A stretch of 51,483 nt of DNA from Candidatus Thorarchaeota archaeon (GCA_048882385.1 JBHLRQ010000011.1:1-51483); one strand, 5' to 3'; counted from the first letter of the stretch, positions 8,455 to 28,718 are shown. Program-made: numbers and translations. Notes: a model not told the origin generated them from the letters alone.

Positions 8455-8892
8455 GTGACAGAAGCTGAAGATAGACCCAAGATTCTTCGTGCAATAAAGA
8501 AATGCCTTGAGAATGGAAACGAGTATTTCGCAAATGCTATGAATACTCTTGATGAAATTGGTAGAGGGTCTCTTGGAGTTGGCATGACTCCATTAGTTGG
8601 AGGATATGCAATGAAAGATCCAAAAGAAAACTATCGAACCGCTCTAATCAATATTGATTCTGCAGAGAAGGCCTTAATGCCACTGATCAAGCGTTTTAAA
8701 GATGGTAGAGTCAACCAATCACATTTTACATCAGAAAGAGCAATGGTTATTCTGGGAGACATTGCTGGGTTTGAGTTTGAAATACTAATCAGGAAGCTCT
8801 CAGAAGGTAGTGGACGTGAATCAATCTGGTACCGTCTAAAAGAAATTCGAGCTAAGATGGATGAACTTCAAAATCTAGTTGCAGAAACATAA
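8455..8892 (+). CDS. Hypothetical alpha-helical protein
   Basis: 145-aa ORF with GAGGTGG RBS before GTG; no recognised motif. Confidence 0.75.
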   Translation: MTEAEDRPKILRAIKKCLENGNEYFANAMNTLDEIGRGSLGVGMTPLVGGYAMKDPKENYRTALINIDSAEKALMPLIKRFKDGRVNQSHFTSERAMVILGDIAGFEFEILIRKLSEGSGRESIWYRLKEIRAKMDELQNLVAET

Positions 8893-8962: not shown

Positions 8963-9628
8963 ATGAGTGGTGCACGGAAGCAAAGCGGTTTCCTTCAAGA
9001 GCTAGAGCGAACAGAGAGAGTGCTCGAAGTTCTACTCACAAGACTTTCTGAGTTGAACTCAGCTCTAGAACCAATAGAAAAGATGATGCGAGTAAGTGAT
9101 TTTGCATCTAGTGGAGTGTATGTTCAAGGTGCATCAAGAGGAGTAGTTTGTGTTCTGTCAGGACTAATTAGAGGAGATCCATTTGATCGCTTGCTTAGTG
9201 AGAACAAGGGTCGTGGAATACCTGCACTAATCAAAGCAGGAGATAGAAGTGAATCACAATCAACGGTAGAAAGTATTGTGAGTATGGTACATGCCAAAGA
9301 TCAATCGAAGTCAGTAGAATTTATAGTAAATCTCAGATGGTCTGTTCTCCCAAAACCAATTGAGAAAGAAAACATAATGATAGTTGGAACAAGGTATTTG
9401 TCAGGTAATCCTCAAGAAGTGAGGCGGCTTATAGTAGAATTACAAGGACTTGGTATCGAAATTCTGGAAGATGATGGTGAATTTGGAGGAGGACCTCTCG
9501 TATATGAATTCATCAAGTCATATAATAATAAACAAACACCTTTGGTTGTTGAACTAACTCTCTCACATAAACTCTCAGAAAATCAGAATTTGGTCACTAA
9601 GATTCTTAATACCCTCGCCGCGTTTTAG
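8963..9628 (+). CDS. Hypothetical protein: N-terminal coiled coil plus possible degenerate N-formylglutamate amidohydrolase (Zn-peptidase fold) domain
   Basis: 4 nt before the ligase ORF; motif order IVNLRWS / MIVGTRY / GEFGGGPL / VVELTLSHKL resembles the FGase family without its His/Glu ligands. Confidence 0.55.
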   Translation: MSGARKQSGFLQELERTERVLEVLLTRLSELNSALEPIEKMMRVSDFASSGVYVQGASRGVVCVLSGLIRGDPFDRLLSENKGRGIPALIKAGDRSESQSTVESIVSMVHAKDQSKSVEFIVNLRWSVLPKPIEKENIMIVGTRYLSGNPQEVRRLIVELQGLGIEILEDDGEFGGGPLVYEFIKSYNNKQTPLVVELTLSHKLSENQNLVTKILNTLAAF

Positions 9629-9632
9629 GTGC

Positions 9633-12600
9633 GTGAACATGGAACCGATTGCTGATAACACCGAGATGCAATTGCCTTTTCCACACGGTATTGAGATAGA
9701 ACTCCAGGTGATTCGGAAAGACGGAACTTGGATTCGCGGTGAAGATATTCTCCAAGTTTTCGACAGGATTGTATCAAGCGCAAAAAGTCTGCTGGACAAG
9801 AAAATACGCTCCTCTCCTGTAGAATCTGTAAAAAGAAAATACAAACAATCAGCACAGACAGAAGAGGGAGAAAGAGGATCTAGAATTGTAGCAGCCTATG
9901 AAGACCCCAATGGAGAACCAAAAGAATACACTCTGCTTGGCCATGATCCTAATGTGACTAGTCTAACATGGATTCTTGAAGTAGCGACTCCTCCTTGTAC
10001 AACACTCGAAGAGCTTGCATGGTGGATTCAAACACTCATAGCAATATCTCATGACTCCCTTCCAAAAGATTCGCAAGCCATCCTTGTGTCTACTGGGCTA
10101 AATCCTACACAGGAGTATCTTAGAAATCTGTCTTTTGGAGAACATCATCATATACTAAGTCATAGCGTAGATGAGAAAACGAAAATAGCAGTCTATAATA
10201 TGATTAGGAATTTCCTTCCTCATCTTATTGCAATTTCAGTCAACTCACCATTTGAGAACAAGAAACCTACTGACGAGTTAACGGTGGCTAGTGATGGAAA
10301 ACTTCGAGCACCAAGGTGCAAGAGGTCGATTAGATTATTAAGAAACACAACACAGATGGGACCAACCAACGAGTTCGAGCTGATACCATATCTCAGTGGG
10401 TCTGACAAGGAAGCCTTTGCGCGACATGTCAATAGAAGCTTTGCCAGAATGGTGGACATGTATCCTTTCACAGATTATGGTACTATTGAGATACGAGTTT
10501 TTGACACCCAATTATCAATTCCCAGAAGGATTGGGCTTGCCTTAATCCTTCAGGCTCTTGCATTGAAAGCTAAAAGAATGATTGAGAATGGCGAAACAAT
10601 ACCGGATGTTGGTCCAAAGTCTTTAGCAGCAAACAGGGCTTCAGCAATTGCAGCTGGATTATGGGGACCATTCAAACCAAGTAGTGCCTCCAAGGATTCA
10701 AATTATGTAAGAATATATGATTTCCAAGTTACTGATAACGGGGTGATAGAGGAGAAGAAGAGAAATCGTTTCCTTGGAGATGCAGTTGCATCAATGTTCT
10801 ACATGATACGAGAAGAGCTTGAGGAACTAAAGATAATGGAGAATCCATTCATGCAAGCTCTCTTGGTTTCAGTTTTTGGTAGTGAATATTCAGAACCTAG
10901 AACAACCGGTGCAGATTTTCAGCTGGATGTTTATGCAAAATCAGACTTCAATATGGTTGTTCTACTGAAAAGACTTTCAGAGGTAACAAGGGAATGTAGC
11001 ACGAATTGGCTTTATGATCCTATAGAAGGAACACCGCATTTACCAACATGGATATGCTGGTGGAAGGGTCTAGAACCAGAAATAGTAACTGACATGGAAA
11101 GAGTATTTGCAGGACAACAAGTGCAATTCAGTGTTTTTGTGAAGAACTCAACCGGACGTCGCTTAGAGAATCTTACACTCACATATTCAATTGAAGACTC
11201 AGAAAGGAATTTGGTCGAGAGTAATGTTATCTCTATTCCGGGTATTGAAACTGGTGAGATACATGTGTCTGATATGGCTTTTCAGACAAAGAAGAATATT
11301 ACAGCATACAACGTAATTGTTGAGGTTGGGTTTGTTGGGAGGGTCATCAACCTCACAAGTACAATCAATATGTATTGGATGAAAGCCTCAGTCAAACCAG
11401 GAACAACAACGCAGTTTGCAGATGGGAAGACTCCTGTTCTGTTTGATGGACAAATTGACACCAACTACCCAGCAGCAGCTTCTGTTCGTTCTCAAGTCAG
11501 CATTATTGCGCTTAGTATGGGAAAAGTGTTGACAACATCTGAGGACATACTTGATGTTGAGAGCGGTGAGTCGACTGCTTTCAACCAGTCTAAATTCAAC
11601 CCAATTCTAATTCCCTCCGATGCCTCAACAGGCGTTGAAAGATGTGTGCTTCAACTTAAACTTTTGAATGAAGATGACACAGAGATAGCAGAAGCTGTAT
11701 CAAAACCGTTCTATGTTGGATTTGTTAGGAGAGGTCCACAAGTCATTATTGACTCAGATCTCAAAACCACATATTTACCTGGGGAGTTGATATCTGGAAA
11801 CATCATAGTTAGTAATATTGGGAAGAAGAAAGAGGGAGCTGAAACTAGGTTGGCCCTTGAGTTTAGGAGTGACTCAGGGAGGTCCTATCTAATTGAAGAA
11901 TTTCTTTATCATGAGTTTATAGGTGGCGATGTGCGATTTAATTGGAAAGTTCCAACTATATCTACTGAGAGCCCAGCAGATCGTGTTGGAATTCTCAAAG
12001 TATCTCTCTCTGACAAGGGGCAAGTTATCGCAACAGCAGAATCTGATAGGATTAGAGTAGACCAAGTTACAACACGTGTAAATATTGATTCACTTCGAGT
12101 TCCAAAAAGATCACATGTTGGAGGTAAATTATCTGGTTGGCTCAGAGTTCGAAGGAATACAGAATTAGGCGAAGCAGCGGTATTGACAATGTCATTCATA
12201 TATCCTGATGGCGAAGAACATCAAGTACTAAGTCAGTCAGTGAAGCAAAGCAAGAATCTCTCATTAGCTTTCGGACCTGTTGTCATTCCAGCACCACGAA
12301 AAATCGATGATCCAAAAACGGTAACACTTGTTGCTTCTCTCAGTTATGCTGGAGTAGAGGTTGATACAAGATCAACTGAGATTGAGCTTCTAGGCGATCC
12401 ACAGGCAGATATTGCCATCATAGAATTTTCAGGTGTTCCTAGTTTCTCATCACCAGACGAGGTAATTCAACCAACAGTTCAAATAACAAGCAATCTAGAC
12501 AAGAAAACTGGTTGTGTTCTCACCGTAGAGCTTGAATCTATTGGAGGGAAAACACCCATTTTAACTCGTGAAATCAATCTTGAACCACGTCAACCACGAA

Positions 12601-13079
12601 TAATACCGATATCTGTACGGATTCCAATGAGCGCTGAGATGAGTACGGCTCATTTACGTGCCATTCTTAGATGTGGAAAGAGAGCATGTGAGAACAGACA
12701 GAGATTCAAAATTAAAGCAATAGAGAAACCAATGTTCAAAGTGAGTTTCTCAATTATGGATGAATCAGGGGAAGAAATACCAGGGCTAGTAGCAAGATTA
12801 TCCCCGATTGATATTATCGCCACAATTGAAAGTCAGAGAGAAAATGTTGAAGAGCTTTCACTAAGCATCCGAGTGATGACTGTTAGAGAGCTTGTCAAAG
12901 AATTTGATATCCCACTCCCTAATCCTGAATCAAAACGAAACACCGTCAAGGTAAGATGGATGACCCCACCAATTGATGTAGTTACAGGATACTATATTGA
13001 TGCAGTAATGATCCAATCAGGACGTCCACTCCCATCAAGGGCAGTCGATTTAATTCGAAGGCAATTCACTGTTTACTAG
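9633..13079 (+). CDS. Glutamate-cysteine ligase family 2 (GCS2/YbdK-like carboxylate-amine ligase) fused to ~6 Ig-like beta-sandwich domains
   Basis: HGIEIELQV, ILEVATPPC, GEHHH, NSPF, SIRL, YGTIEIRVFDTQ in the first ~330 aa; beta-rich ~100-115 aa units from ~11070 to the end. Confidence 0.85.
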   Translation: MNMEPIADNTEMQLPFPHGIEIELQVIRKDGTWIRGEDILQVFDRIVSSAKSLLDKKIRSSPVESVKRKYKQSAQTEEGERGSRIVAAYEDPNGEPKEYTLLGHDPNVTSLTWILEVATPPCTTLEELAWWIQTLIAISHDSLPKDSQAILVSTGLNPTQEYLRNLSFGEHHHILSHSVDEKTKIAVYNMIRNFLPHLIAISVNSPFENKKPTDELTVASDGKLRAPRCKRSIRLLRNTTQMGPTNEFELIPYLSGSDKEAFARHVNRSFARMVDMYPFTDYGTIEIRVFDTQLSIPRRIGLALILQALALKAKRMIENGETIPDVGPKSLAANRASAIAAGLWGPFKPSSASKDSNYVRIYDFQVTDNGVIEEKKRNRFLGDAVASMFYMIREELEELKIMENPFMQALLVSVFGSEYSEPRTTGADFQLDVYAKSDFNMVVLLKRLSEVTRECSTNWLYDPIEGTPHLPTWICWWKGLEPEIVTDMERVFAGQQVQFSVFVKNSTGRRLENLTLTYSIEDSERNLVESNVISIPGIETGEIHVSDMAFQTKKNITAYNVIVEVGFVGRVINLTSTINMYWMKASVKPGTTTQFADGKTPVLFDGQIDTNYPAAASVRSQVSIIALSMGKVLTTSEDILDVESGESTAFNQSKFNPILIPSDASTGVERCVLQLKLLNEDDTEIAEAVSKPFYVGFVRRGPQVIIDSDLKTTYLPGELISGNIIVSNIGKKKEGAETRLALEFRSDSGRSYLIEEFLYHEFIGGDVRFNWKVPTISTESPADRVGILKVSLSDKGQVIATAESDRIRVDQVTTRVNIDSLRVPKRSHVGGKLSGWLRVRRNTELGEAAVLTMSFIYPDGEEHQVLSQSVKQSKNLSLAFGPVVIPAPRKIDDPKTVTLVASLSYAGVEVDTRSTEIELLGDPQADIAIIEFSGVPSFSSPDEVIQPTVQITSNLDKKTGCVLTVELESIGGKTPILTREINLEPRQPRIIPISVRIPMSAEMSTAHLRAILRCGKRACENRQRFKIKAIEKPMFKVSFSIMDESGEEIPGLVARLSPIDIIATIESQRENVEELSLSIRVMTVRELVKEFDIPLPNPESKRNTVKVRWMTPPIDVVTGYYIDAVMIQSGRPLPSRAVDLIRRQFTVY

Positions 13080-13432: not shown

Positions 13433-14359
13433 ATGCTGCAGATACTGACCCATCCGGCCGTTTCCGGATTATTGGTGATGACAATAGTTGGAGCTTTAGC
13501 TTACAAGCTCAACTTTGTGGACATCTCAGGTCTGATCAGTGCTTTCGTTGTAGGATTCACTATTTGGTATACTGGTGGAGTTGTATCCTTCATAATCATC
13601 CTGTTCTTCTTTATGAGCGCAGGCATAGCAACAAAGATGAAGTATAAAGAAAAAGCAAAGCAGAATTTGGCTCAGGAAGGCAAGGGCAAACGGTCATGGA
13701 AAAATGTCTTTGGTAGCGGAATAATCCCAATGATGTTCTCGATAGGGATGTATTTGACGAGTTTATCACCAGAACTGAATGCAGCAAGCTGGCCGTTCCT
13801 GATGTTTGGTGGATATATTGGAGCTGTGGCTACCACAAGCGCAGACACACTCGCGAGCGAGATCGGAGTATTCAGTAAGAGCAAGCCTCGTCTAATTACA
13901 AACCTTCGGCGGAAAGTACCACGAGGTACAATTGGAGCAGTATCACTTCTTGGAGAAGGAGCAGCTCTCTTTGCTGGATTTTTCATTGGTGTTCTTGCAC
14001 TTATCATCGCACTCCTCGCTCCAAGTTTGGTACCTGCAGTCACTACAACAGACCAACTGATTGTGCTTGTTCCGCTGTCAATGTTGACCGCATTCATCGG
14101 ATGTAATCTTGACAGTGTATTTGGAGCAGTTCTACAAAATAGATTCGTATGCGAAATATGTGGTGCAGTCACTGACAAGGAGTTTCATTGCAACTATGAA
14201 ACGAAGTATGTTGGCGGCTTCAAGAGCTTCACAAACATGCATGTGAATCTTGGTTCTTCTGGAATGGGCGCAACTCTAGGAATCATTTTGGGTGCGGGGC
14301 TATTCGTCTGGATACTTGGAGGCCTATTCTTCTGGATAGCTGCTTCTTCTAGCAGTTGA
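13433..14359 (+). CDS. DUF92/TMEM19-family membrane protein with CxxC..HC zinc-ribbon insert
   Basis: KRSWKNVFGSG, ADTLASEIG, GAVSLLGE, DSVFGAVLQ, CEICG...HC, NMHVN. Confidence 0.88.
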   Translation: MLQILTHPAVSGLLVMTIVGALAYKLNFVDISGLISAFVVGFTIWYTGGVVSFIIILFFFMSAGIATKMKYKEKAKQNLAQEGKGKRSWKNVFGSGIIPMMFSIGMYLTSLSPELNAASWPFLMFGGYIGAVATTSADTLASEIGVFSKSKPRLITNLRRKVPRGTIGAVSLLGEGAALFAGFFIGVLALIIALLAPSLVPAVTTTDQLIVLVPLSMLTAFIGCNLDSVFGAVLQNRFVCEICGAVTDKEFHCNYETKYVGGFKSFTNMHVNLGSSGMGATLGIILGAGLFVWILGGLFFWIAASSSS

Positions 14360-15701
14360 TTGACCGGGATTCAAATTCTATCGCATATTCAACAGATTTT
14401 ATAGAATCAACTCCTTCAGACATCCTCTTCAAAAGCCCAGAAACAAACAGTTCAGAAAGATCAGCTGAATCATATTCACAGGAGATAACCTGATCCAATC
14501 CATCAACAGAACTGAAACGGTACTTCTTTTTCGATAGTTTGATGATCATCGCAGCCTCACTAATTCCTCTAAGTTTCGGTAAAGGTTTAGGTCCCAAGAG
14601 CTGTCTAAGGAATTTCCATGCGCGATTCGATATTAGTAAAGTATCTACCTGAGATAGTACAGGCTTCAATCGATTGAGTCCAAGTTCCCAAAATGGTACG
14701 GAACATCGATACACTGTCGGAATTCCTCGAGCTTTAGCATGAGCAGCAATTGCTGCGGCAACTTCAACGAATACTTCACCTATGTAAACAACCTTGGATG
14801 TTTCCAGCTCATTCCACGGAACTTGTGAAGGAGAAGTAATTGAAAGTGAAGTGGATGAACCAACACCTACGAGAGTCCTCGAACCTTTCTTTCCTTCGCC
14901 AATGATGAAGGTTTCATTGGTACGTTTATTATCTTCCACTACAATATGACTGACATCTACACCTCCTTGGATGAGATTACTGATAATATTCCAGCCATCC
15001 ATGTCATTACCAACTGATGATACCAAGACTGTTTCTAGAGCCTCTCTTGCCAAAGAAAGTGCGAGATCCAAAGTTGGTCCTCCAGGGTAGCGAACAGGCG
15101 AACTACAACTCGCAAGAGCTCCAAGAGCAGGAAGTTTATCACACTCGATCTGGGTATTGACTGCAGATGCGCCAAATAATATGAATGCAGGTTTCTTGTA
15201 TGTTTTTGACCCGTCAAGTAAAGCTTTGCCTCTCATCCGTGCAAAAATCTCAAAGAGTGCGGACTCAGGAATTCCCTGATCTCTGTAAAGTGTAGCTAAC
15301 CTTGTTAAATAATCTTCAAGTAGGAATGCAGTCAATTCTTCAATGTCAGATGGAAGTCCTTCAAAATAGAATCTTGCGAGACCCCATCCATTCTTTGTTA
15401 GTTCATGATACACAACTCGTTTTCCATTATGTATTGTCGTCCCAGTTGTGATAAGGTCAAACCTCTGTAAGGTCTTCAAGTAGGAGAGCACACTCTTGTT
15501 GGAGTGTTGCAAGTTCTCAACAAGGTCTCGCTGCAAGACACGTCCCTCCTCACTGAAACTGGAGAGCACGCTTCGAGCAATACGGGATGCAAGCACAGAT
15601 CGAATGAAATCATCTCTAGCTTCATGTTCAGCTGGTAGAAAGAGAAGGTATGGCCAAAGAGGCTCAGTGGAGTTTGATTTCGTCATTCCCAACATCTTCA
15701 A
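14349..15701 (-). CDS. Winged-helix transcriptional regulator fused to a degenerate PfkB/ribokinase-like domain (start uncertain)
   Basis: wHTH (QRDLVENLQHSNKSVLSYLKTLQRFDLI...YHELTKNG); PfkB-like PGG, VGNDMDG, GVDVSHI; no DTxGAGD motif. Confidence 0.8.
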   Translation of the reverse strand: MKMLGMTKSNSTEPLWPYLLFLPAEHEARDDFIRSVLASRIARSVLSSFSEEGRVLQRDLVENLQHSNKSVLSYLKTLQRFDLITTGTTIHNGKRVVYHELTKNGWGLARFYFEGLPSDIEELTAFLLEDYLTRLATLYRDQGIPESALFEIFARMRGKALLDGSKTYKKPAFILFGASAVNTQIECDKLPALGALASCSSPVRYPGGPTLDLALSLAREALETVLVSSVGNDMDGWNIISNLIQGGVDVSHIVVEDNKRTNETFIIGEGKKGSRTLVGVGSSTSLSITSPSQVPWNELETSKVVYIGEVFVEVAAAIAAHAKARGIPTVYRCSVPFWELGLNRLKPVLSQVDTLLISNRAWKFLRQLLGPKPLPKLRGISEAAMIIKLSKKKYRFSSVDGLDQVISCEYDSADLSELFVSGLLKRMSEGVDSIKSVEYAIEFESRSINC

Positions 15702-19386: not shown

Positions 19387-20538
19387 GTGAGTACAAGAAT
19401 AAGGAGCCTATTGCTGGAATTCGAAACAGACGAGGTTGGGAAACTAGCAAGAATGAATGTCAAAAACAAGACGGCATTGATCAAGGCGTTCTCCGATACT
19501 TCTGATATTGTAAGAGAACGAGCTCTAATCGCATCAATAGACCTTGCAGACCCCGAAGTAGTAACCGACGTGGCAAAGGCTCTAGACGATGATGTGACTG
19601 ACGTACGAATAGCTGCAGCACAATCTCTTGCTTTCTATCATCAACCTAGAACAATTCCAGTTCTATTCAAGGGACTCAAAGATGATAGTACTTGGGTCAG
19701 ATCTCATTGTGCAGTCGGACTATCTAAACTATTGAATGGACCAATTTGGGCACGACTTCCAACTGAAGATATTGACAAGTTTCTGGATGATTTCCCTGAG
19801 ATGGCAGAAGAAGAAATCAATAGATTTCTCTCAAGCATCAAAATGAATGCCTCCGCTATTGATCGATATATGAATTGGCGTGGTAAGGGATTTGATATCG
19901 AAATTGATGTGACCACTGTTGTTGAAGAGCTTGAAAGCGCACCAATTTTCCTGTCTGAGGAGGCAGTTGCATCTGTTGATGTTTCCAAACGAACAGGAGT
20001 TACTGACGAAGTTGAGGAGATCCTTAGTGAGCTTCCAGAAGAAATAATCTCCACCCTTCCACCTGAGGATATCAAAAGACTAACACCTGCATCAGCAAGA
20101 GAGCTTGTTCAAAAGCTAAAGGTATCAATTCCTTCTGCTGCACCAAAGAAGAAAAAGAAAGCTGTGAAAGTTCGTAAAGTCAAGAAGGTCAAAAAGAAAA
20201 AGAAACCCACTGAAATAGATGAACTGGTTGCGAAACTCCCTGCGGAAGTACGGAGTGAGATTGGAGATGAAACTCTCGCATCTTTGAGTGTAGAGGAACT
20301 AGAAGCATTGCTGGCATCGTCTCCGGAACCAGAAGAGCCGGAGCCGGAACCAGAACCAGAAGTTGAAGCACCTGATCCGAGGATGCAAACCTTCATTGAC
20401 AAATATGGAGAAGAGAAAGCACAGCTTCTAATCACTATTCCAGAAGTAATGCTGGAGGGTATTCCAGAGGAACAAATAGAGGAAATGGATCTAGAAACTT
20501 TGAAAGGTCTTACTCAAGCTCTAGAACCCCGAGAGTGA
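19387..20538 (+). CDS. HEAT-repeat (PBS-lyase type) protein with Lys-rich tract, (EP)n linker and acidic helical repeats
   Basis: LIKAFSDTSDIVRERA, ALDDDVTDVRIAAAQSL, GLKDDSTWVRSHCAVGL; PKKKKKAVKVRKVKKVKKKKKP; PEPEEPEPEPEPE; GGAGGAG RBS. Confidence 0.85.
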   Translation: MSTRIRSLLLEFETDEVGKLARMNVKNKTALIKAFSDTSDIVRERALIASIDLADPEVVTDVAKALDDDVTDVRIAAAQSLAFYHQPRTIPVLFKGLKDDSTWVRSHCAVGLSKLLNGPIWARLPTEDIDKFLDDFPEMAEEEINRFLSSIKMNASAIDRYMNWRGKGFDIEIDVTTVVEELESAPIFLSEEAVASVDVSKRTGVTDEVEEILSELPEEIISTLPPEDIKRLTPASARELVQKLKVSIPSAAPKKKKKAVKVRKVKKVKKKKKPTEIDELVAKLPAEVRSEIGDETLASLSVEELEALLASSPEPEEPEPEPEPEVEAPDPRMQTFIDKYGEEKAQLLITIPEVMLEGIPEEQIEEMDLETLKGLTQALEPRE

Positions 20539-20539
20539 C

Positions 20540-21844
20540 TTATTCAGCACCACGAATGACAACTGCGAACTCACCAGCTAATTTGCCATACCACTCAAGA
20601 AGATCTCGCATATTATCTACATGACGATAACTGCCATTTCCATATTGCGCGATAGCAAGCATTAGCTCTTCATCAATCTCACTTCTTTCACCAAGACCTA
20701 TTGAGTAAATTACGAGCTTGCTTCGGTCTGTGAATCGTTCTTTTAGGACCTTTAAAGGTGGAGGTCCAGAAGTGGTCATTCCATCTGTGAGCATAATTAA
20801 CATTGTGGGTTTGTTTGGGTCACCAAACTCTTCCATTATCTCATGTGCCTTCGCAAGAGCTGAGCCCATGTCTGTTAGTGTACCACCTTCTTCAACCTTG
20901 TCAACGACATGCGTGCTAATTATCTGAAGGCCCAGCGCTTTTTCACGTCCAGTACATTCAACAAAGGGTTGAACCTCGCCGGATTCTGAGTTTAGAAATG
21001 TCATCTCACTGACTTCTTTCTCAAAAGTAATGACACCGACCTTCTCTCCATAACCCCGACCGACTTTTTCAGCAAGATAGAGCAAGACTGCCATTGCTGC
21101 AGCTTCAGCTCTACTAACATTTCTCCCTTCCTCAAATCGGTTGAGAAAGGCATGAACTTCTGGACTATCGCCTGCGAGATCCTTCAATCCTTCCCGAGCG
21201 TGAGCGATATCCTGAACAGGAACATCTGTAGTTTTCATCGAACCGCTCGTATCAACGCATAAAACTGCATTGAAAGGAGAGGCGATTCCAACAGTCTTGA
21301 ATTGGTAGCCAGTTCGTTCTCGTAGAGCTTCGAAGGCTAGTTTGGCAAAGGTTTTTCCTGCCAACGGAGGCTTTGTGTTGATTATTTCAACCTTCACAGC
21401 CAACTCGGGCCAATTAAAAGACATTCCAGGATAGACAAGTCTGCCTCCAATAATGTTCTCAAGTGATTTTACCCGTTCTGCAGCTCTCGAAACAAGATCT
21501 TCGGTGTTAGCATCTTCTGCCAAGGGTTTGAGACCAAACTCTACGTATTCTAGCGCTAGCATATCCTCATCATAGAGGGTTGCTTCAACTTGATCGCCTT
21601 CCATAAGTAATGATGCTTCCAGAACTAATGTATCAATGACAATCTGGTCCTCAGACACCTCGTTGCTTTTTCTAATCTCTGCGGCACCCCAGAAGCTACT
21701 CTGTGGATCTTCAAATATTACAATTGATCCTATGTCTGCATCAAGTTTCTTTGCAGTTTTAGGATGAAGATTAGCAAATCCTCTAAGGTCTCCGCCGTCG
21801 ATTATCTCCAAGGATAGTTTCTTGGTGATGGCTTTTGCCTCCAT
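20540..21844 (-). CDS. CDC48/NSF N-domain-like + vWA (intact MIDAS) protein
   Basis: GFANLHPKTAKKLDADIGSIV...QIVID...GDQV (double-psi barrel pattern), GRLVYPG...VEIINTKP (CDC48_2-like), CVDTSGSM, TDMGSAL, MLTDG, YSIGLG. Confidence 0.8.
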   Translation of the reverse strand: MEAKAITKKLSLEIIDGGDLRGFANLHPKTAKKLDADIGSIVIFEDPQSSFWGAAEIRKSNEVSEDQIVIDTLVLEASLLMEGDQVEATLYDEDMLALEYVEFGLKPLAEDANTEDLVSRAAERVKSLENIIGGRLVYPGMSFNWPELAVKVEIINTKPPLAGKTFAKLAFEALRERTGYQFKTVGIASPFNAVLCVDTSGSMKTTDVPVQDIAHAREGLKDLAGDSPEVHAFLNRFEEGRNVSRAEAAAMAVLLYLAEKVGRGYGEKVGVITFEKEVSEMTFLNSESGEVQPFVECTGREKALGLQIISTHVVDKVEEGGTLTDMGSALAKAHEIMEEFGDPNKPTMLIMLTDGMTTSGPPPLKVLKERFTDRSKLVIYSIGLGERSEIDEELMLAIAQYGNGSYRHVDNMRDLLEWYGKLAGEFAVVIRGAE

Positions 21845-21897
21845 AGTGCTATAGAATGTAACTCTAATTCTGATGTTATAAAGAATTGTGAGTCCGC

Positions 21898-23382
21898 TTA
21901 TGCCAAAAGTCGAAGTAAGTGGGTTTGTAACTCTTGTGATGATTCTAGTGTTATTGAATGGTCAGACAAAGATTTCTGTAGTACGAGTCCAATTTTCTGA
22001 GATGCATTTTCCAACGTATCAAGCTGTATCATTCCTTGAGTTGTCAACACCGTGCAGCTAAGGAGATTTCCTGGACGCCGTCGTATCCAGATATGGTATT
22101 CTTTAGGTTCATCCTTTAATGTCAGTGTTAAAACATAAGATTCCTGATGAATTCCATTTTCCCTAGCGCTATCGACGGTTTTGGGCTCAGGCCAAGTCCC
22201 TATTGGAGGAATCATGTAATCAAGTGAACATAGGTCCCATGTTCCTTTTTTCATAAGGCTAATGATCATTTCTTCGACTTCTCGTTGTATTTTTCGAGAG
22301 GTGTCTAAACAGATCAATTCACTTGGTGTTCCACTTGAACCTTTTGAAGTCCTATATGGAGAACGTAGTAAAGAGAGTGTGTTTCCTCCTAGAATTTTCT
22401 GCGCATCACCTAAGGTTCCAGGAAAATCTCTTGAGAGCAGATACATGATTATATCAAGAGCTTGAACAGACAGATAACTAAAATCAGTACCAAAGAGTAA
22501 TTTTTGGGACCATAATCGTAACCTGTCGCTAGCAGTTTCAAATAGAACTGGAACGTCTCGATCATGCAAGGTAGAGGTTTCACCAAATATTAGTGGGTCC
22601 TTTAAAGCTTCATAGAGGCGCGAATCACCAGGAGACATTCCACAATGAGCAAGAATGACCTTCAAACCTCTTAGAGCATCCCCGCATTCAGGATCGTTGC
22701 GCATCGAATCCACGAGTCTTTTGATTCTAACAACAGTCTTCATATTTCGTGTATCAAAGATAATTGGTAGACCAAGTTCTCCAGCACGTTTTACAACATT
22801 TCTGGTTGCCTCACCTTCAATTGAGTCTATGAATAACTGGGCAAGGGGATGAAGTTTGAGTCCCCTTAATCCGAGATTCTTCACACTCCTTTCAAGTTCC
22901 TTTACTGCAGCATCTCCATCATCTAGTGGATTAACCCTGGAAAAACCAATGAGCCTGGTTGAGTGAGGTGCTCTGCTTGTCCATGAAGCAATTTTGTCAT
23001 TTGAAATCTTGAATGAAGGGACTCCAGGTTCCTCTGGCGATGAATAATCATCCGTGTATGGAAAAACAACAGTTCTGTCAACCAACCAACCATGGTCTAA
23101 GCGATTCCAACTGTTGCGGCTCTTAAAAACACGAGTGGCTAAATCAGGAGCCCTGACATTTACAGGTTCGAAAAGTAGTTGATCATCATCCATCATTTTT
23201 TGTGATTGTTTTTGAATCTCAAACCAAAGAGATGCATAAAAATCGTAAGCACCAGCAGGAGTGTTTTTGTGTCCTTTTTCAAGGCCCATATGATGATGAG
23301 TATCTACGATATAGATAAAGAACTCGTCATCCTTCTTTATGCCTCGATTTGGTTGATCTTCAACAGCCCGGACTACAAGCAT
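21898..23382 (-). CDS. Metal-dependent amidohydrolase (Amidohydro_2-like TIM barrel) with a C-terminal extra domain
   Basis: VDTHHH, RLIGFSRVNP, LGLRGLKLHP, AHCG, LLFGTDF, KILGGN. Confidence 0.88.
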   Translation of the reverse strand: MLVVRAVEDQPNRGIKKDDEFFIYIVDTHHHMGLEKGHKNTPAGAYDFYASLWFEIQKQSQKMMDDDQLLFEPVNVRAPDLATRVFKSRNSWNRLDHGWLVDRTVVFPYTDDYSSPEEPGVPSFKISNDKIASWTSRAPHSTRLIGFSRVNPLDDGDAAVKELERSVKNLGLRGLKLHPLAQLFIDSIEGEATRNVVKRAGELGLPIIFDTRNMKTVVRIKRLVDSMRNDPECGDALRGLKVILAHCGMSPGDSRLYEALKDPLIFGETSTLHDRDVPVLFETASDRLRLWSQKLLFGTDFSYLSVQALDIIMYLLSRDFPGTLGDAQKILGGNTLSLLRSPYRTSKGSSGTPSELICLDTSRKIQREVEEMIISLMKKGTWDLCSLDYMIPPIGTWPEPKTVDSARENGIHQESYVLTLTLKDEPKEYHIWIRRRPGNLLSCTVLTTQGMIQLDTLENASQKIGLVLQKSLSDHSITLESSQELQTHLLRLLA

Positions 23383-23500
23383 GAATGAATTTCGTTATAT
23401 TTGTGTGATAAACTATTGCTTCAACTCAAGGTAGAAGTCAGCATTATGCATATATCAGCTACTGTCAACATTTTGCTAGTAAGCTCTGGAGCCCTGAAGG

Positions 23501-26158
23501 ATGATAGTTGTTGAAGACATTGAAGCAAATGAAATTCATCGCTTCGTTGTTATTGACACGTCATTGCAACTTGGTATCGTTAGAGCAGGGCAGGATATAC
23601 GAACTTTTGACCCAGACCGTGCGTTTTCATTCTATAATATGGTCGATAACCAGCTTAATGATTTTGCATCAGTGTACCCAGGTGCATTCAGGTATCTTCC
23701 AAGAAGAGCATATGACTATCTTCGAAAACCGCGTCTTCTGAGTGAGTTCTATCACGGATCTACTGCTACATCAGAATCAAGTTGGATAGCAGACTACCTT
23801 GTAGTTAAACCACTAATCAATCTTGGAGATACAGCCCTTCCAGTATTGCAGCAGGAAACGAATGCAAAATCAATCCACAGATGGGCTACAGTTCCACCTC
23901 ATAGTCCAAGATTATATCATCTTCAAGATATGAGACAGGGTCGTAGATCAGAGCAGGGATGGGGGTGCGTATTGCGGACAAATGATCTTCCAGTTGCTCT
24001 AAAAGGACCAAACAGAACAGATTTGCTAGACTACATCAAAACGAACAAGCCAATCTTCATTGAACTAGGTCCTAGTGATGAGCTAGATCCGTTGTTGGAA
24101 TGGCTGGTTCTCTTGAAGCAGGCGGGTTTGAAGACTCCGAATCTTGTTTTGGGGGCTAAGAATCACAAAGCATGGGGTAAGAACATAACTCGACTTCTTG
24201 ATGTCCCAGGAAGCAAGGTCTTGACATCCGGCGCGACCATATCTTCATTATCGACTCTTGTACGTCATATGCGAAAGACCCAAAGTGATGCAAACTGGTC
24301 AAAGAGATTAATATTCTCCTCAGCATATCCTGAAACTCAATTTGGCGACAGTATTTCAGAGATATTCAGTTATCTATTAAGCAGGAATTTAGCTGCAGAA
24401 CCGGAGGAAATACAGCGAATTCTAGGGGGCAATTTTCTAGCAATCACACCTCCTCGTCCTGCATTCCTTCAATATGATGAAAACAAGACATCCGTTGTTG
24501 CCGAGGAAAGCCTGGGAAAAGCAGCTATGAATGAGCTTGCAAGAATACTTCAGCTTCTGGATGCTCGAAAAAAACTTGGAATAGTATCGCTTGATCATAT
24601 GGTTGAAAATGATGGAGGAAGGATCTATCTGGATAGTTGTGTCCTAACACTAAAGAGTTCCAACTCACCCAACGCAATAAGTCTCGCTTTGTTACTTGAA
24701 AAGAATGGTTCTGTAATGTTTTCAGGATGGAAAAAAGCATTCTCAGAAAGTCTTCTTTCTAGAGACGGAATTCTTCTCGCAACACTGGTCCGTGCAAATG
24801 CCAAACTAGAAGGACCAATTTACGGTTCTCCAGCACACCTGACCCGTTTTAATCAAGCCCTCCTCACCTGTCTTCACGTGGACAAACCAAAGGAGGTGCT
24901 GTCAGCTCTTCATTTTGGTGTTGAGATTGCAAAATCTGAACCAGGTATATTCTTCATGTGCGAGAGCGATATGAAAGCGCTTGAGGTTTCAAGTGGGGAC
25001 TATCTTCTTGCTTTAGATGTCAATACTGGTCAATGGTGTACAGGCGTAACCAAAAAACATCCTCGTTGTGGTGAACGGTCAATAGTAGTTTCTGAATCTG
25101 ATGCATTTCTCTTCGGATTTCAAAATTCGACCATTGTGAATCTGGTTAGATATGAAGGAGAAATCACTGAAATCAAGGAAGCTGTATTCTCATACTATTC
25201 ACCTCAGCCATCAAGCAATGCCGAGTTGGCATCATTCATGCATTTGCATGAGAATCAAATTCGAGATTCTATAAAAGGTGTACTTGTGGGGGTTGATACT
25301 AGGCTGAATGTGGGACGAAATGAAAGCAAAGTTTCGATGAGAGTCAAGCATTCAAAACCTCAATTGCTTCCTGGGCAGGTTGGAAGAATAACTGATATTG
25401 GAACAGATTTCAAGCCCCATCAATCCTTCAGTGATTTCAATATAATTCTCTGTATCTCAAAAGGAATGAAGATGAAGACAAAGGATGTTTCTTTAAAAAC
25501 ACTGCAAACCGCCAAGACACAATTGAAACCCTTAGTAAGAATCGTTCCAGAACTTGAAACATTTCTTGATGGAATAAAAAGGACTTCATCAAGATCACAG
25601 ATTGCAGCATTGGCAGCTCTTATGATTGTAAACATGCTGATACACAATCGAACTGAAGGAAGATTAGCGCTTGTGACCTTCAATGAAATTCCAGAGAAAT
25701 TCTCTATCCAAAGAGGAAAGGAAGTACAATCTTTCATTGAATTCTACGAAGACCTTCAATCAGAAGAAGTCCTAATTTCATTGATTTACTCAATTATTGA
25801 TGCTGTTGAGGGAGTTGAAGGATTTGAGAACATGGCTGGAGCTTACCGCTCGATAGCAGAATACCTTGAAGACTTTGGACCAGAACGTCCAACAATAGCA
25901 CTCGTATTCAGTAACGGAGCTGGTTCCTTTGATGAGGAGCATATCTCGTTTCTTCGAGCGATATCAAAACAAGACCGGTACCGACTTGACATTCTAACCC
26001 TTGGGAAGAATGGAAACCAGAAATCTAGCCTCAGATTACTAAAAGGGCTGCATTCAAATTTGATTCCAATTGAAACGTTCTCAGCCTATACTTTTACAGG
26101 TTACTTTCTGGATTTAATTGAAAATCTTGTACCCAGAACTACAAGCCACCAGTCCTAA
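23501..26158 (+). CDS. Multidomain pseudoenzyme: degenerate amidohydrolase + accessory domain + CDC48-N-like + degenerate vWA
   Basis: Collinear similarity to the two divergent neighbours: YLLSRNL..EIQRILGGN vs YLLSRDF..DAQKILGGN; FNIILCISKGMKMKTKDV vs FNAVLCVDTSGSMKTTDV; SRSQIAALA vs SRAEAAAMA. Confidence 0.8.
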   Translation: MIVVEDIEANEIHRFVVIDTSLQLGIVRAGQDIRTFDPDRAFSFYNMVDNQLNDFASVYPGAFRYLPRRAYDYLRKPRLLSEFYHGSTATSESSWIADYLVVKPLINLGDTALPVLQQETNAKSIHRWATVPPHSPRLYHLQDMRQGRRSEQGWGCVLRTNDLPVALKGPNRTDLLDYIKTNKPIFIELGPSDELDPLLEWLVLLKQAGLKTPNLVLGAKNHKAWGKNITRLLDVPGSKVLTSGATISSLSTLVRHMRKTQSDANWSKRLIFSSAYPETQFGDSISEIFSYLLSRNLAAEPEEIQRILGGNFLAITPPRPAFLQYDENKTSVVAEESLGKAAMNELARILQLLDARKKLGIVSLDHMVENDGGRIYLDSCVLTLKSSNSPNAISLALLLEKNGSVMFSGWKKAFSESLLSRDGILLATLVRANAKLEGPIYGSPAHLTRFNQALLTCLHVDKPKEVLSALHFGVEIAKSEPGIFFMCESDMKALEVSSGDYLLALDVNTGQWCTGVTKKHPRCGERSIVVSESDAFLFGFQNSTIVNLVRYEGEITEIKEAVFSYYSPQPSSNAELASFMHLHENQIRDSIKGVLVGVDTRLNVGRNESKVSMRVKHSKPQLLPGQVGRITDIGTDFKPHQSFSDFNIILCISKGMKMKTKDVSLKTLQTAKTQLKPLVRIVPELETFLDGIKRTSSRSQIAALAALMIVNMLIHNRTEGRLALVTFNEIPEKFSIQRGKEVQSFIEFYEDLQSEEVLISLIYSIIDAVEGVEGFENMAGAYRSIAEYLEDFGPERPTIALVFSNGAGSFDEEHISFLRAISKQDRYRLDILTLGKNGNQKSSLRLLKGLHSNLIPIETFSAYTFTGYFLDLIENLVPRTTSHQS

Positions 26159-26412: not shown

Positions 26413-27582
26413 TCACCTGGAAGTACTAATCTTCTTAATCCGTTGCTCAAGCTCCAGTAATCTTTTCGTTAGTATTTCGATTCTATCAATATTTTCAGCA
26501 AGTCGGGTTTGTAATGCATCAAGGCTGCCTTTTTCGACAGTAGATGAACCTGATGTTGTATCGAATTTTGACTCTAAAACATCTAAACGTTTTTCAAAAT
26601 CAGAAAGACTCAATTTATCCAATCGACTTCTTAGAGATTCAAGACTCCTTTTCACATCATCTGAACTAAGCTCTTCTCTAGTAGATGCTGCCTTTTTTGG
26701 TTCTTGACTAACTCTAGCTTCTAGAACAACCTCTCTCATCTTTTTTGGTGGTCGAAAACTATCTCCAGGCACCATCCAGATTGGGACAAGATATTTTCTG
26801 GAGATCTCTTCAAGACCAACACCCGTGATACTCGCAAATGCGGCTATTCTTTGTGGCGAATCCCAGAAGCACACATCGATAATACCATCCTTAACAAAGA
26901 CACAAGCCACAATAGCAGATCGTATTCCTCTAAATAATTCAAGACCAGTAATCCATCGAGTAAGGAGAGCAGAGAAAATTGGGAGGTCTTTTGATGAGCC
27001 ATGGCGAATCAGGAGATCCTCAGAAGATCCTTCTTGAACAATAGCCTTGATCCACTCAGTCATTTTGGTACTCGCCTTTGGCAATGATAGCACTAAGACA
27101 TCATTCACAAGTTTCTCGTTCGTATCCATCCTCAACTGTTCTACATAATCGAGATTAGGCTCAACAAAACTCTTTGATACGTTCTTTCCAAGCCCATACT
27201 CAAGAAGAAATCGAATGATTTCAAGAGGTGATTGATTCTGAACTTGGAATGCAATGATAGACTGTGAATTCTTTTTTCCCAAGACCATAGCTACAAACTT
27301 GCTTTCAGTGAGACCCTTAGGACCTATTACAAGAATATTTGCAGCTCCGGGCGAACTCATATCTCTGACTAGTCTTGCAAACCTGTCTGCAGGTATAACT
27401 AGTGATTCTTGATTGTGTTTGTCACGAAGTTTTCCTTTCATACCCATTGAAAGAATACCTTGCTCAATCCATCCAGTCTTCATTGAATCTTCAGGAAGTT
27501 TGGAATAGATATATCCAGAAACTTCACCACTGTGATAAAGGGCTTGAAGTCTGGTCGATAGATCTTTACTAATCGATATCAC
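26413..27582 (-). CDS. Hypothetical protein, alpha/beta N-terminal region plus C-terminal coiled coil
   Basis: 389-aa ORF overlapping the upstream gene end; heptads in the last ~85 aa. Confidence 0.8.
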   Translation of the reverse strand: MISISKDLSTRLQALYHSGEVSGYIYSKLPEDSMKTGWIEQGILSMGMKGKLRDKHNQESLVIPADRFARLVRDMSSPGAANILVIGPKGLTESKFVAMVLGKKNSQSIIAFQVQNQSPLEIIRFLLEYGLGKNVSKSFVEPNLDYVEQLRMDTNEKLVNDVLVLSLPKASTKMTEWIKAIVQEGSSEDLLIRHGSSKDLPIFSALLTRWITGLELFRGIRSAIVACVFVKDGIIDVCFWDSPQRIAAFASITGVGLEEISRKYLVPIWMVPGDSFRPPKKMREVVLEARVSQEPKKAASTREELSSDDVKRSLESLRSRLDKLSLSDFEKRLDVLESKFDTTSGSSTVEKGSLDALQTRLAENIDRIEILTKRLLELEQRIKKISTSR

Positions 27583-28705: not shown

Positions 28706-28718
28706 CAGGCAACCTCCT

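Follow-up and report, generated by a model that had tools for sequence, protein, structure and literature searches.

A YbdK-type ligase fused to six Ig-like domains and its putative partners in a gene module of Asgard archaea

The window analyzed here is the whole of a 51,483-nucleotide stretch of DNA from a Candidatus Thorarchaeota archaeon (GCA_048882385.1, JBHLRQ010000011.1:1-51483), and the gene under study, at 9633..13079, encodes a YbdK/GCS2-type carboxylate-amine ligase followed by a long tail of immunoglobulin (Ig)-like units. We propose that the product of this gene is the catalytic subunit of a so far undescribed module of genes, namely: the ligase, a vWA docking protein, a metal hydrolase and a small helper, which is spread across much of the Asgard phylum. 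The ligase, the vWA protein and the hydrolase are inherited together, and the first two are predicted to bind each other. Our tentative preference, over the formation of a small-molecule amide, is that the module makes a reversible amide or isopeptide-type mark on proteins or peptides; the protein or peptide target is the least supported step of this reading. Full-text literature searches found no paper describing an Asgard ligase-vWA-amidohydrolase module.

The ligase gene is a genuine and conserved fusion

A preliminary description of the window, made from its sequence, had reported the fusion and raised the concern that it might be an assembly or frameshift artefact. The fusion is genuine, since full-length conserved relatives occur in many genomes. 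A word-indexed search of 5.8 billion proteins scored 7996 candidates, of which 165 are relatives at E <= 0.001. The best 120 of these 165 share 51-92% identity with the window protein, and most of them are 1130-1153 aa long, with a coverage of 99-100%; their sources label them as Thorarchaeota, with a few Promethearchaeota, Sifarchaeia and Lokiarchaeota. A pattern scan of public species-representative genomes found 69 ligase loci, nearly all titled Thorarchaeota, and the ligase is matched in 75 of the 85 genomes of the window's own family (f1). Most of the f1 matches listed cover approximately residues 1-1148 without internal stops, while some are fragments at contig ends. The stretch itself is present in DNA runs of at least three studies.

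The open reading frame (ORF) is annotated from a GTG that lies 4 nt behind the stop of the upstream gene (TAG, 9626-9628). Two codons past this GTG, at 9639, is an ATG that matches the start positions of the orthologues and at whose residue the ESM Atlas record of the protein begins; the true product is therefore probably 1146 aa long, and the annotated start should probably be 9639. A Kyte-Doolittle scan of the protein found no hydrophobic N-terminus and no transmembrane segment (maximal 19-residue mean of 1.32, with a polar N-terminus). The protein is accordingly read from its sequence as soluble and cytoplasmic, as first described.

Modelling places the ligase domain in the YbdK branch

At the level of sequence, the match of the domain to known families is weak. 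Pfam PF04107 (GCS2) scores 25.1 bits with a cut-off of 21 and aligns residues 164-212 only (profile positions 120-167 of 291), an alignment that is likewise short in most of 36 relatives scanned. The best NCBIfam model, TIGR02050, reaches 57.3 bits, below its cut-off of 176.4, and the NCBIfam glutamate-cysteine ligase (GCL) equivalogs (PRK1351x) reach 22-44 bits with cut-offs of 332-437. Against PDB sequences, phmmer matches YbdK 1r8g at E 0.0017.

At the level of fold, the match is strong. An AlphaFold2 model of the full protein, built from a 40-sequence alignment, has a mean predicted local distance difference test score (pLDDT) of 87.2 and a predicted TM-score (pTM) of 0.55. When this model was compared with structure representatives, with ligase residues 14-453 aligned, the best match was Salmonella YbdK 1tt4 (Z 34.1, root-mean-square deviation 2.8 A over 329 residues, 22% identity), followed by plant GCL 2gwc (Z 26.6), GshF 3ln7 (20.8), Dop 9cku (20.5), PafA 4bjr (19.6), GshA 3nzt (19.0) and glutamine synthetases (14-16). 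With Z scores of 34 and 27 for YbdK and GCL against ~20 for PafA and Dop, the model assigns the domain to the YbdK/GCL branch and not to the PafA/Dop branch. The comparison with PafA drawn in the preliminary description thus holds for the superfamily fold, but beyond that it is an analogy of function only.

The catalytic motifs that had been called intact are E21-x-E23, LE116VAT, G169-E-H171-H-H173, R234/R272 and E286-I-R288-V-F-D291, and they are invariant or nearly so in 27 orthologues. They were also followed in an alignment of 13 Asgard ligase domains, drawn from 10 families, and 12 short GCS2 proteins (335-372 aa) taken from the exhaustive HMMER search described below. All motifs are kept in this alignment, namely: HGIExExQ (E21, E23), LE (E116), GxNP, FGEHHH (H171, H173), NSP, SxR (R234), RxxD (R272, D275), TxExRxxDxQ (E286, R288, D291) and NR. 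We take the ExE, E, HxH, R and ExR residues to have the metal-, ATP- and substrate-binding roles that they have in the superfamily. Since the motifs are invariant in orthologues and kept in distant families, we judge that the ligase is probably catalytically competent.

Compared with the short GCS2 proteins, this branch has three features of its own: an insert at residues ~33-100, another at ~214-228 and, at residues 440-478, a C-terminal helical extension. Relative to the YbdK/GCS2 enzymes (PF04107, TIGR02050; 1tt4, 1r8g; GCL 2gwc), with which it shares the fold and the ExE, LE, GxHxH, NSP, R and ExRxxD motifs, the Asgard ligase therefore differs by ~100 extra residues in conserved inserts and by the helical extension, and also by its scores below the NCBIfam cut-offs, its six Ig-like domains and its dedicated protein partners. 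The departure from single-domain YbdK had been noted beforehand.

Within its own genome, which is 95% complete, this gene is the only match to PF04107. PF04262 GshA was not found there; Pfam Pup_ligase (PF03136) has no match in the protein at E <= 0.1 and none in the genome, while the control, Corynebacterium glutamicum, was found. The PF02955 (GshB) search of the same genome is uninformative, since PF02955 also matches 8 of 14 control genomes, some of which presumably lack glutathione.

The ligase, the vWA protein and the hydrolase are inherited together

An exhaustive HMMER search of 1.84 billion cluster representatives returned 160 proteins at E <= 0.001, 92 of them at E <= 1e-30. The ligase module, of ~460 residues, is found in four contexts: (1) full-length look-alikes of the window protein at 29-33% identity; (2) tail-less proteins of 466-640 aa; (3) proteins of 1000-1400 aa with other tails; and (4) giant proteins of 2232-3804 aa, in which the module is close to the C-terminal end. 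The short forms carry Hod-, Loki-, Hel- and Sigynarchaeal source names, and two are labelled Bathyarchaeota. Pfam finds little beyond GCS2 in the 36 relatives scanned, the extra domains being CARDB in P0138, helix-hairpin-helix in P0143, double zinc ribbon in P0179 and an N-terminal vWA in P0180.

The giant proteins are P0140, P0143, P0145, P0153, P0158, P0159 and P0189. The helix-hairpin-helix of P0143, at residues 1011-1062, is the only extra domain among those scanned with Pfam. The source of one giant form calls it an SbcCD-like ATPase, a name that probably goes back to coiled coils. A word-based search for longer fused forms found only two, of 2232 and 2438 aa.

The distribution of the module was determined in 400 genomes of the window's phylum, with the window proteins as queries (thresholds of E <= 1e-25 for the vWA protein and E <= 1e-20 for the hydrolase). 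Matches to the ligase were found in 254 genomes, to the vWA protein in 246 and to the hydrolase in 250. Fourteen families have the ligase module and the others do not. As shown in Table 1, the three genes follow each other from family to family, and each of them is at zero in every other family with more than one genome, e.g. f8 (0/31), f10 (0/12) and f14 (0/19). A comparison of the genomes by hand gave ~235 with both ligase and vWA protein, ~19 with the ligase only, ~11 with the vWA protein only and ~135 with neither. Eight f1 genomes (G321, G323, G324, G365, G380, G387, G388 and G389) are without all three genes, and six of these eight are 91-99% complete. The ligase, the vWA protein and the hydrolase are inherited together.

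Table 1. Genomes with a match to each of the three proteins, by family.
Family	Ligase	vWA protein	Hydrolase
f1	75/85	75/85	75/85
f11	17/22	16/22	16/22
f13	12/12	12/12	11/12
f15	5/5	5/5	5/5
f16	6/6	6/6	6/6
f21	11/14	10/14	11/14
f22	115/135	109/135	113/135
f23	4/4	4/4	4/4

The vWA gene concerned is the one at 20540..21844, which is accompanied by the hydrolase gene at 21898..23382. The preliminary description had suggested a link to the vWA cluster of the window, and had proposed co-occurrence across Asgard genomes as a check of it. The link and the shared family-level pattern were borne out, but for this vWA gene and not for the one at 28719..29861 that had been singled out.

Tails like that of the window protein occur also in f2 (33% full-length identity) and f3 (31%), and to some extent in f15 and f16. 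The proteins of the large family f22, of 550-600 aa, are tail-less and extended by ~100 residues at the N-terminus. In f15 and f16 (loci L085-L088), there are two ligase paralogs, of ~1180-1200 aa and 1230-1400 aa. An adjacent vWA gene of its own accompanies each paralog at both of its sequenced loci, a full hydrolase gene is present at three of the four loci, and the genomes have up to three matches to the vWA partner. The module has thus been duplicated as a unit in these families.

In the single-contig genome G368, the ligase frame of one orthologue (C1:1477734-1481144) contains a TAA, and the matches to the vWA protein and the hydrolase are far poorer in this genome (E 1e-34 and 1e-27). 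This locus may be a decaying copy of the module.

The gene neighbourhood of the ligase was compared at two distances. Loci of the Thor family are syntenic across the whole neighbourhood (ABC ATPases, genes of 145 and 221 aa, ligase, DUF92 and PfkB kinase); the 221-aa gene is present in 58 of the 69 Thor loci and the 145-aa gene in 56. This synteny is so broad that it carries little functional information, and distant loci were therefore compared. In 14 loci hand-picked from nine other families, the ORFs were clustered (cl1-cl4). The Amidohydro_2 hydrolase (cl1) lies within ~6 kb of the ligase in 12 of the 14 loci, and the vWA protein (cl2) in nine; their window orthologues match at E down to 8e-74 and 5e-107, respectively. 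Directly upstream of the ligase in 11 of the 14 loci is a member of cl3 (8 loci) or cl4 (3 loci), both of which share the C-terminal domain of the 221-aa protein. No common biosynthetic neighbours beyond the module were found across the 14 loci.

The ligase is predicted to bind the vWA protein

In the relative P0180 (962 aa), the barrel+vWA partner (residues 1-410) and the ligase module (residues 452-904) are on one chain. Its first 410 residues match the f15 orthologue of the vWA partner at E 9e-32 and the window's vWA gene at E 4e-24.

Complex predictions of ligase residues 1-480 with the vWA protein gave interaction scores (ipSAE) of 0.68, 0.75 and 0.76 (median 0.75), while the best of three controls scored 0.00. 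The pLDDT of the partner is 80-82, and the runs share at least 50% of their contacts. Of 157 solved complexes, 116 reach this ipSAE mark, as do 2 of 215 mismatched pairs, but both partners were supplied here as our own alignments, so these benchmark counts apply only roughly. As far as we are aware, there is no solved YbdK-vWA structure for the model to have memorised.

The predicted contacts of the ligase are at residues 35-40, 81-82, 104-113, 163-165, 214-215, 225-228, 239-249, 267-270, 337-346 and 379-380, most of which are on family-specific inserts and invariant residues. On the side of the vWA partner, they include the invariant LLYLAEKVGRGYGE and WY segments. None of the catalytic residues is among the predicted contacts, and several contacts flank H171/H173, R234 and R272.

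The prediction supports binding of the vWA partner by the ligase. Taken together, the vWA-ligase fusion, the co-occurrence and the complex prediction indicate that the ligase very probably acts in a protein complex, in line with the earlier suggestion that it might act on a large one.

The tail consists of generic Ig-like sandwiches in the model

Residues 480-1148 are all-beta in the AlphaFold2 model and form six units of ~105-116 residues each (D1-D6), whose borders were set from the strand pattern and the aligned ranges of the structure search. The number agrees with the approximately six Ig-like domains of the preliminary description, and the four peptides quoted there fall within the first strands of units 1, 3, 4 and 5.

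Besides the matches given in Table 2, D1 resembles the ARRDC3 N-lobe (Z 11.4), VPS26C (11.0) and the alpha-2-macroglobulin MG domain 2p9r (11.0). The D1-D2 pair matches the factor XIII beta-barrels of 4kty over residues 478-695 (Z 12.3), and the tail also resembles the transglutaminase barrel pair of 8oxv (Z 12.3). D5 matches the C4 MG domain 5jpm (Z 11.7), CARDB 3idu (11.1) and PKD 4xed (10.5), while D3, D4 and D6 are barely covered by the single-unit search. A Foldseek search with the whole model is led by C4, C3, C5, A2ML1, CD109 and bacterial alpha-2-macroglobulin (E 1e-22 to 1e-17 over ~780 columns), but with TM-scores of only 0.09-0.16, and the Ig chain PirB scores alike. Pfam MG2 is weak in the protein (16 bits with a cut-off of 32.8, E 0.016). 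A CxEQ thioester motif was sought in the sequence and is absent, and the Pfam scan at E <= 0.1 gave no arrestin, Vps26, A2M, TED, receptor-binding or CARDB match. The tail units are best described, on the model, as generic Ig-like sandwiches.

More specific identities were tried and rejected. As to arrestin or Vps26, VPS26C 8p0x_P (297 residues) aligns over 102 residues only, with D1 alone, and ARRDC3/TXNIP match by one N-lobe each, with Z 10.6-11.4 as against 13.4 for the dextranase Ig domain; the structure comparison proposed beforehand thus gave a single-lobe match no better than glycosidase Ig domains. A thioester macroglobulin is likewise rejected. The alpha-2-macroglobulin and complement C3/C4/C5 chains lead the Foldseek search, and single units resemble their MG domains at Z ~11-12, a value that other Ig-like folds equal; the protein differs from these chains in having no CxEQ motif and no A2M, TED or receptor-binding domain, in its low TM-scores and in being, as read here, cytoplasmic. 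CARDB (PF07705), also proposed, fared better at the level of fold, with the match of D5 to 3idu, than at that of sequence, where Pfam gives nothing. In P0138, the first tail unit passes the Pfam CARDB model (24 bits with a cut-off of 22.7, E 4.7e-5). Look-alikes of the tail in the ESM Atlas, which we treat as leads, are unnamed clusters and one with 40% CARDB members (scores 0.91-0.92). The Asgard tail differs from CARDB also in its apparently cytoplasmic location and its fusion to an enzyme. The resemblance of the tail to the Ig domain of the vWA protein at 28719..29861, suspected earlier by eye, found no backing at the level of sequence, with a best BLASTP E of 0.22.

The tail units appear to be old. 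When they were compared by hhalign, only D3-D4 and D3-D5 reached ~55% probability (E 1e-4), and the other 13 pairs were noise, which rules out a recent tandem duplication. Measured against the window protein, the ligase domain averages an identity of 0.76 and the tail units 0.41-0.59, the lowest value being that of D3. The tail is constrained yet evolves faster than the enzyme. The idea that the C-terminal carboxylate serves as a ligand of the metal ion-dependent adhesion site (MIDAS) of the vWA protein, by analogy with C3b and factor B, was dropped because the invariant QFTVY end is not kept beyond the Thor family.

The partner proteins

The features of the window that are discussed here are collected in Table 2.

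Table 2. Features of the ligase protein and genes of its putative module in the window.
Feature	Coordinates	Strand	Basis
Ligase gene	9633..13079	+	1148 codons from GTG at 9633, stop included; ATG at 9639 the likelier start
YbdK/GCS2-type carboxylate-amine ligase domain, residues 12-478	9666..11066	+	Pfam, NCBIfam, fold match, motif alignment
Ig-like sandwich D1, residues 480-582	11070..11378	+	Model; dextranase Ig 5axg Z 13.4, Spo0M 12.8
Ig-like sandwich D2, residues 583-697	11379..11723	+	Model; D1-D2 pair resembles factor XIII barrels
Ig-like sandwich D3, residues 700-810, most variable unit	11730..12062	+	Model; conservation; weak profile similarity to D4 and D5
Ig-like sandwich D4, residues 813-920, with conserved GWLR(I/V)RRNTE	12069..12392	+	Model; conservation
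Ig-like sandwich D5, residues 925-1030	12405..12722	+	Complement C4 MG 5jpm, CARDB and PKD fold matches
Ig-like sandwich D6, residues 1033-1148	12729..13076	+	Model; similar tail-end pattern in other long forms
Cdc48N-like barrel + vWA protein, predicted partner of the ligase domain	20540..21844	-	Pfam VWA; MIDAS; fusion P0180; complex prediction
Amidohydro_2-type (PF04909) metal hydrolase	21898..23382	-	Pfam E 3e-13, 50.6 bits with a cut-off of 26.4
221-aa partner, long N-terminal helix + phosphorylase/hydrolase-fold domain	8963..9628	+	Stop 4 nt before the ligase GTG
145-aa helical protein, module membership uncertain	8455..8892	+	56/69 Thor loci; Thor family only
885-aa single-chain paralog of hydrolase + vWA, both metal sites lost	23501..26158	+	BLASTP to cl1 and cl2 orthologues; motif loss
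399-aa paralog of the barrel+vWA partner without MIDAS	27569..28768	-	BLASTP E 1e-13 to cl2; motif loss

The vWA partner passes PF13519 with 38 bits (cut-off 27), and its MIDAS motif (DxSxS...T...D) is complete, with D198, S200, S202, T324 and D354 invariant in 17 sequences. Its N-terminal region weakly resembles the VAT/Cdc48 N-domain barrel 1cz4 (E 0.058, residues 18-92); the Pfam scan found no AAA ATPase fused to this barrel, and one orthologue has a Molydop_binding match at E 0.002. The hydrolase keeps the HxH, H, H and D ligands of its family, in the segments DTHHH, LKLHP, LAHCG and GTDF aligned with nine orthologues, and its best match among PDB sequences is 3nur, at E 0.0065 only. NCBIfam gave no names to six proteins of the partner region. 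The distance from the ligase downstream to the hydrolase-vWA pair is 7.5 kb in the window, and this spacing recurs in the genus, e.g. in G354, where all three genes are on contig C8.

The model of the 221-aa partner (pLDDT 86.9, pTM 0.75) shows a 50-residue helix followed by a phosphorylase/hydrolase-like domain. Its best fold matches are N-formylglutamate amidohydrolase 2q7s (Z 10.9), an M42 peptidase (10.8) and pyroglutamyl peptidase 2ebj (10.7), with nucleoside phosphorylases (Z 9-10), poly-gamma-glutamate hydrolase (PghP) 3a9l (9.1) and YndL 5onj (Foldseek E 1e-5) behind them. Several sub-families score alike, including the nucleoside phosphorylases and PAC2-type PbaB. Against PDB sequences, its profile gave a single chance-level match (E 0.018). 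The protein differs from the hydrolases that it resembles in lacking a conserved catalytic set and a Pfam family: among 22 homologues, only D170 and G177 are conserved, and it is therefore read as a non-catalytic helper. A phosphoribosyltransferase (PRTase) fold, suggested by an hhhhDDxxFxGG motif and PRTase-CE at E 0.036, was rejected in view of the fold of the model.

In tail-less families, the upstream partner is longer and has, as judged by eye from the sequence pattern, one CARDB-like unit. This would be compatible with Ig units having moved between the subunits of one complex. The 145-aa protein has no Pfam match and was not found beside the ligase in the 14 distant loci.

Possible function of the module

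In the mechanism that we favour, the ligase would use ATP and Mg2+ to activate a carboxylate as an acyl-phosphate and then link it to an amine, as its fold and invariant motifs suggest. Its family-specific inserts are predicted to dock the Cdc48N-like vWA protein, whose intact MIDAS could hold a carboxylate-bearing ligand. The metal amidohydrolase would reverse or prepare the amide bond, and the 221-aa hydrolase-fold protein would act as the non-catalytic helper. The six-domain Ig arm, found in Thor-type proteins and a few sister lineages, would most likely serve to recruit or hold a large partner and have no share in the chemistry.

A macromolecular target is suggested by the MIDAS-vWA protein, the Cdc48N-like barrel, the Ig arm, the helix-hairpin-helix and zinc-ribbon fusions and the dead paralogs that have been kept. 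By analogy, a ligase together with an amide-cleaving enzyme and a barrel like that of Cdc48N/VAT-N recalls write-and-erase tagging by PafA and Dop (PF03136; 4bjr, 9cku), which share the superfamily fold with the Asgard ligase (Z 19.6 and 20.5). The Asgard module differs from PafA/Dop in that PF03136 is absent, the hydrolase is of a TIM-barrel family and not a PafA paralog, and the barrel carries no AAA domain. A bolder version of the reading, which we regard as possible but doubtful, is a reversible protein-marking system of Asgard archaea unrelated to ubiquitin: the YbdK-type ligase would write a glutamylation-like mark of the amide or isopeptide type, the TIM-barrel amidohydrolase would erase it, the motor-less Cdc48N-vWA protein would present or read it through its MIDAS, and the Ig arm of the Thor-type proteins would recruit large substrates.

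Several points weigh against a protein-marking module. No substrate, tag gene or modified residue was identified, and the small ORFs were not screened for tag features. Short forms of 470-600 aa without the Ig arm occur in most Asgard families, and the arm is thus unnecessary for the core function or chemistry. PafA and Dop, at Z ~20, are more distant than YbdK, GCL and GshF, the known close structural relatives, all of which act on small molecules. vWA proteins also serve small-molecule or metal-insertion machines, such as chelatases and the partners of MoxR. In the Thor family, the ligase and the hydrolase-vWA pair are ~7.5 kb apart on opposite strands and are therefore not co-transcribed. 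Related genomes are not independent samples, so the co-occurrence is used here as a pattern and not as a statistic; the complex score is the model's own confidence, from alignments that we supplied; and the placement of the domains relative to each other is uncertain in the model, as its pTM indicates.

The alternative that survives best, and that we consider a lesser but real possibility, is that the ligase forms a small-molecule amide, that the amidohydrolase recycles or matures the product, and that the vWA protein and the Ig arm scaffold or regulate a multi-enzyme complex. The fold matches (YbdK Z 34.1, GCL 26.6, GshF 20.8) and the arm-less short forms argue for it, as does Amidohydro_2, a family of small-molecule hydrolases and decarboxylases. 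An oligopeptide-type ABC transporter also adjoins the genes in the window's family, but this synteny is limited to the Thor family, and the 14 distant loci share no biosynthetic neighbours. Moreover, a MIDAS-vWA protein on dedicated inserts, an Ig arm, and DNA-binding and zinc-ribbon fusions would be unusual for simple metabolism.

It is improbable that the ligase is simply the host's gamma-glutamylcysteine synthetase carrying a decorative tail, which would serve as GshA in a low-molecular-weight thiol pathway like that of haloarchaea. This would fit the single PF04107 match and the missing PF04262 GshA in the genome, and the name 'glutamate-cysteine ligase family protein' that sources give to relatives. 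Consistent with it, a review notes GshA-family InterPro matches in Asgard genomes and the formation of gamma-glutamylcysteine in vivo by Haloferax gshA (PMC7278568). However, the protein scores at most 57 bits with NCBIfam GCL and YbdK models whose cut-offs are 176-437, its large conserved inserts (the predicted protein interface) would be left unexplained, and co-inheritance with a hydrolase and a vWA protein is not needed for thiol synthesis; the GshB search, being uninformative, lends no help.

Self-ligation, in which the vWA protein or the ligase tail would itself be the substrate of a transglutaminase-like, covalently cross-linked assembly, is similarly unlikely. The complex prediction puts the vWA protein on the rim of the catalytic face (contacts 163-165, 239-249 and 267-270, near H171/H173, R234 and R272), and the tail resembles the beta-barrel pairs of transglutaminases (4kty and 8oxv); the catalytic residues are nevertheless missing from the contact list, the likeness of fold is generic to Ig-like domains, and the conserved C-terminal QFTVY is lost outside the Thor family. 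Finally, it is highly improbable that the protein is a non-catalytic scaffold whose ligase fold only binds a ligand. That the module has kept several dead paralogs (the hydrolase-fold helper, the 399-aa vWA-like protein and the 885-aa twin) might speak for it, but the metal, ATP and substrate motifs are invariant in 27 orthologues and kept in distant families.

The fold of the enzyme is well known, but its Asgard branch is not; it occurs in well over half of the Asgard genomes sampled and is consistently inherited with the vWA and hydrolase genes. With a protein as its target, the module would be the third independent case of ligase-based protein tagging, after the ubiquitin-like systems and pupylation, and one in the lineage nearest to eukaryotes, the Asgard archaea being their closest archaeal relatives. 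If the target is a small molecule, the module would represent a widespread Asgard metabolite pathway with an unusual protein scaffold. With either target, the predicted ligase-vWA complex and the conserved inserts offer concrete constructs for biochemistry, and an in vivo test could be possible, as the families with short forms may include cultured strains. The present analysis contributes the interface mapped on the family-specific inserts, the three matched phyletic profiles and the placement of the parts of the module in the window.

Other genes near the ligase and its partners

Adjoining the 885-aa paralog are three tightly packed or overlapping genes at 26413..29861 (-), namely: a 389-aa protein without a family; the 399-aa MIDAS-less paralog; and, 380 aa long, the vWA protein of the preliminary description, which matches VWA_4 (E 3e-12) and ends in a beta region. 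With the genes of 20540..26158, they make up a cluster of four vWA-type genes.

In f2 and f3, a gene for a protein of ~800 aa lies directly upstream of the helper and the ligase (L083:2962-5376 on the plus strand and L084:9963-12344 on the minus strand). The L083 protein has coiled coils and an EAP30/Vps36 (ESCRT-II-like) domain at E 3e-19; its L084 homologue has weak matches only (CarboxypepD_reg-like, E 8e-4).

The gene at 14349..15701 (-) encodes 450 aa, with a weak N-terminal HTH_24 winged helix (E 0.05) and a PfkB sugar-kinase domain (E 6.5e-14), and is conserved downstream of DUF92 in 33 of the 69 Thor loci. At 19387..20538 (+) is a gene for a 383-aa HEAT-repeat protein (HEAT_2, E 1e-11), whose end is 1 nt from the convergent gene of the vWA partner.

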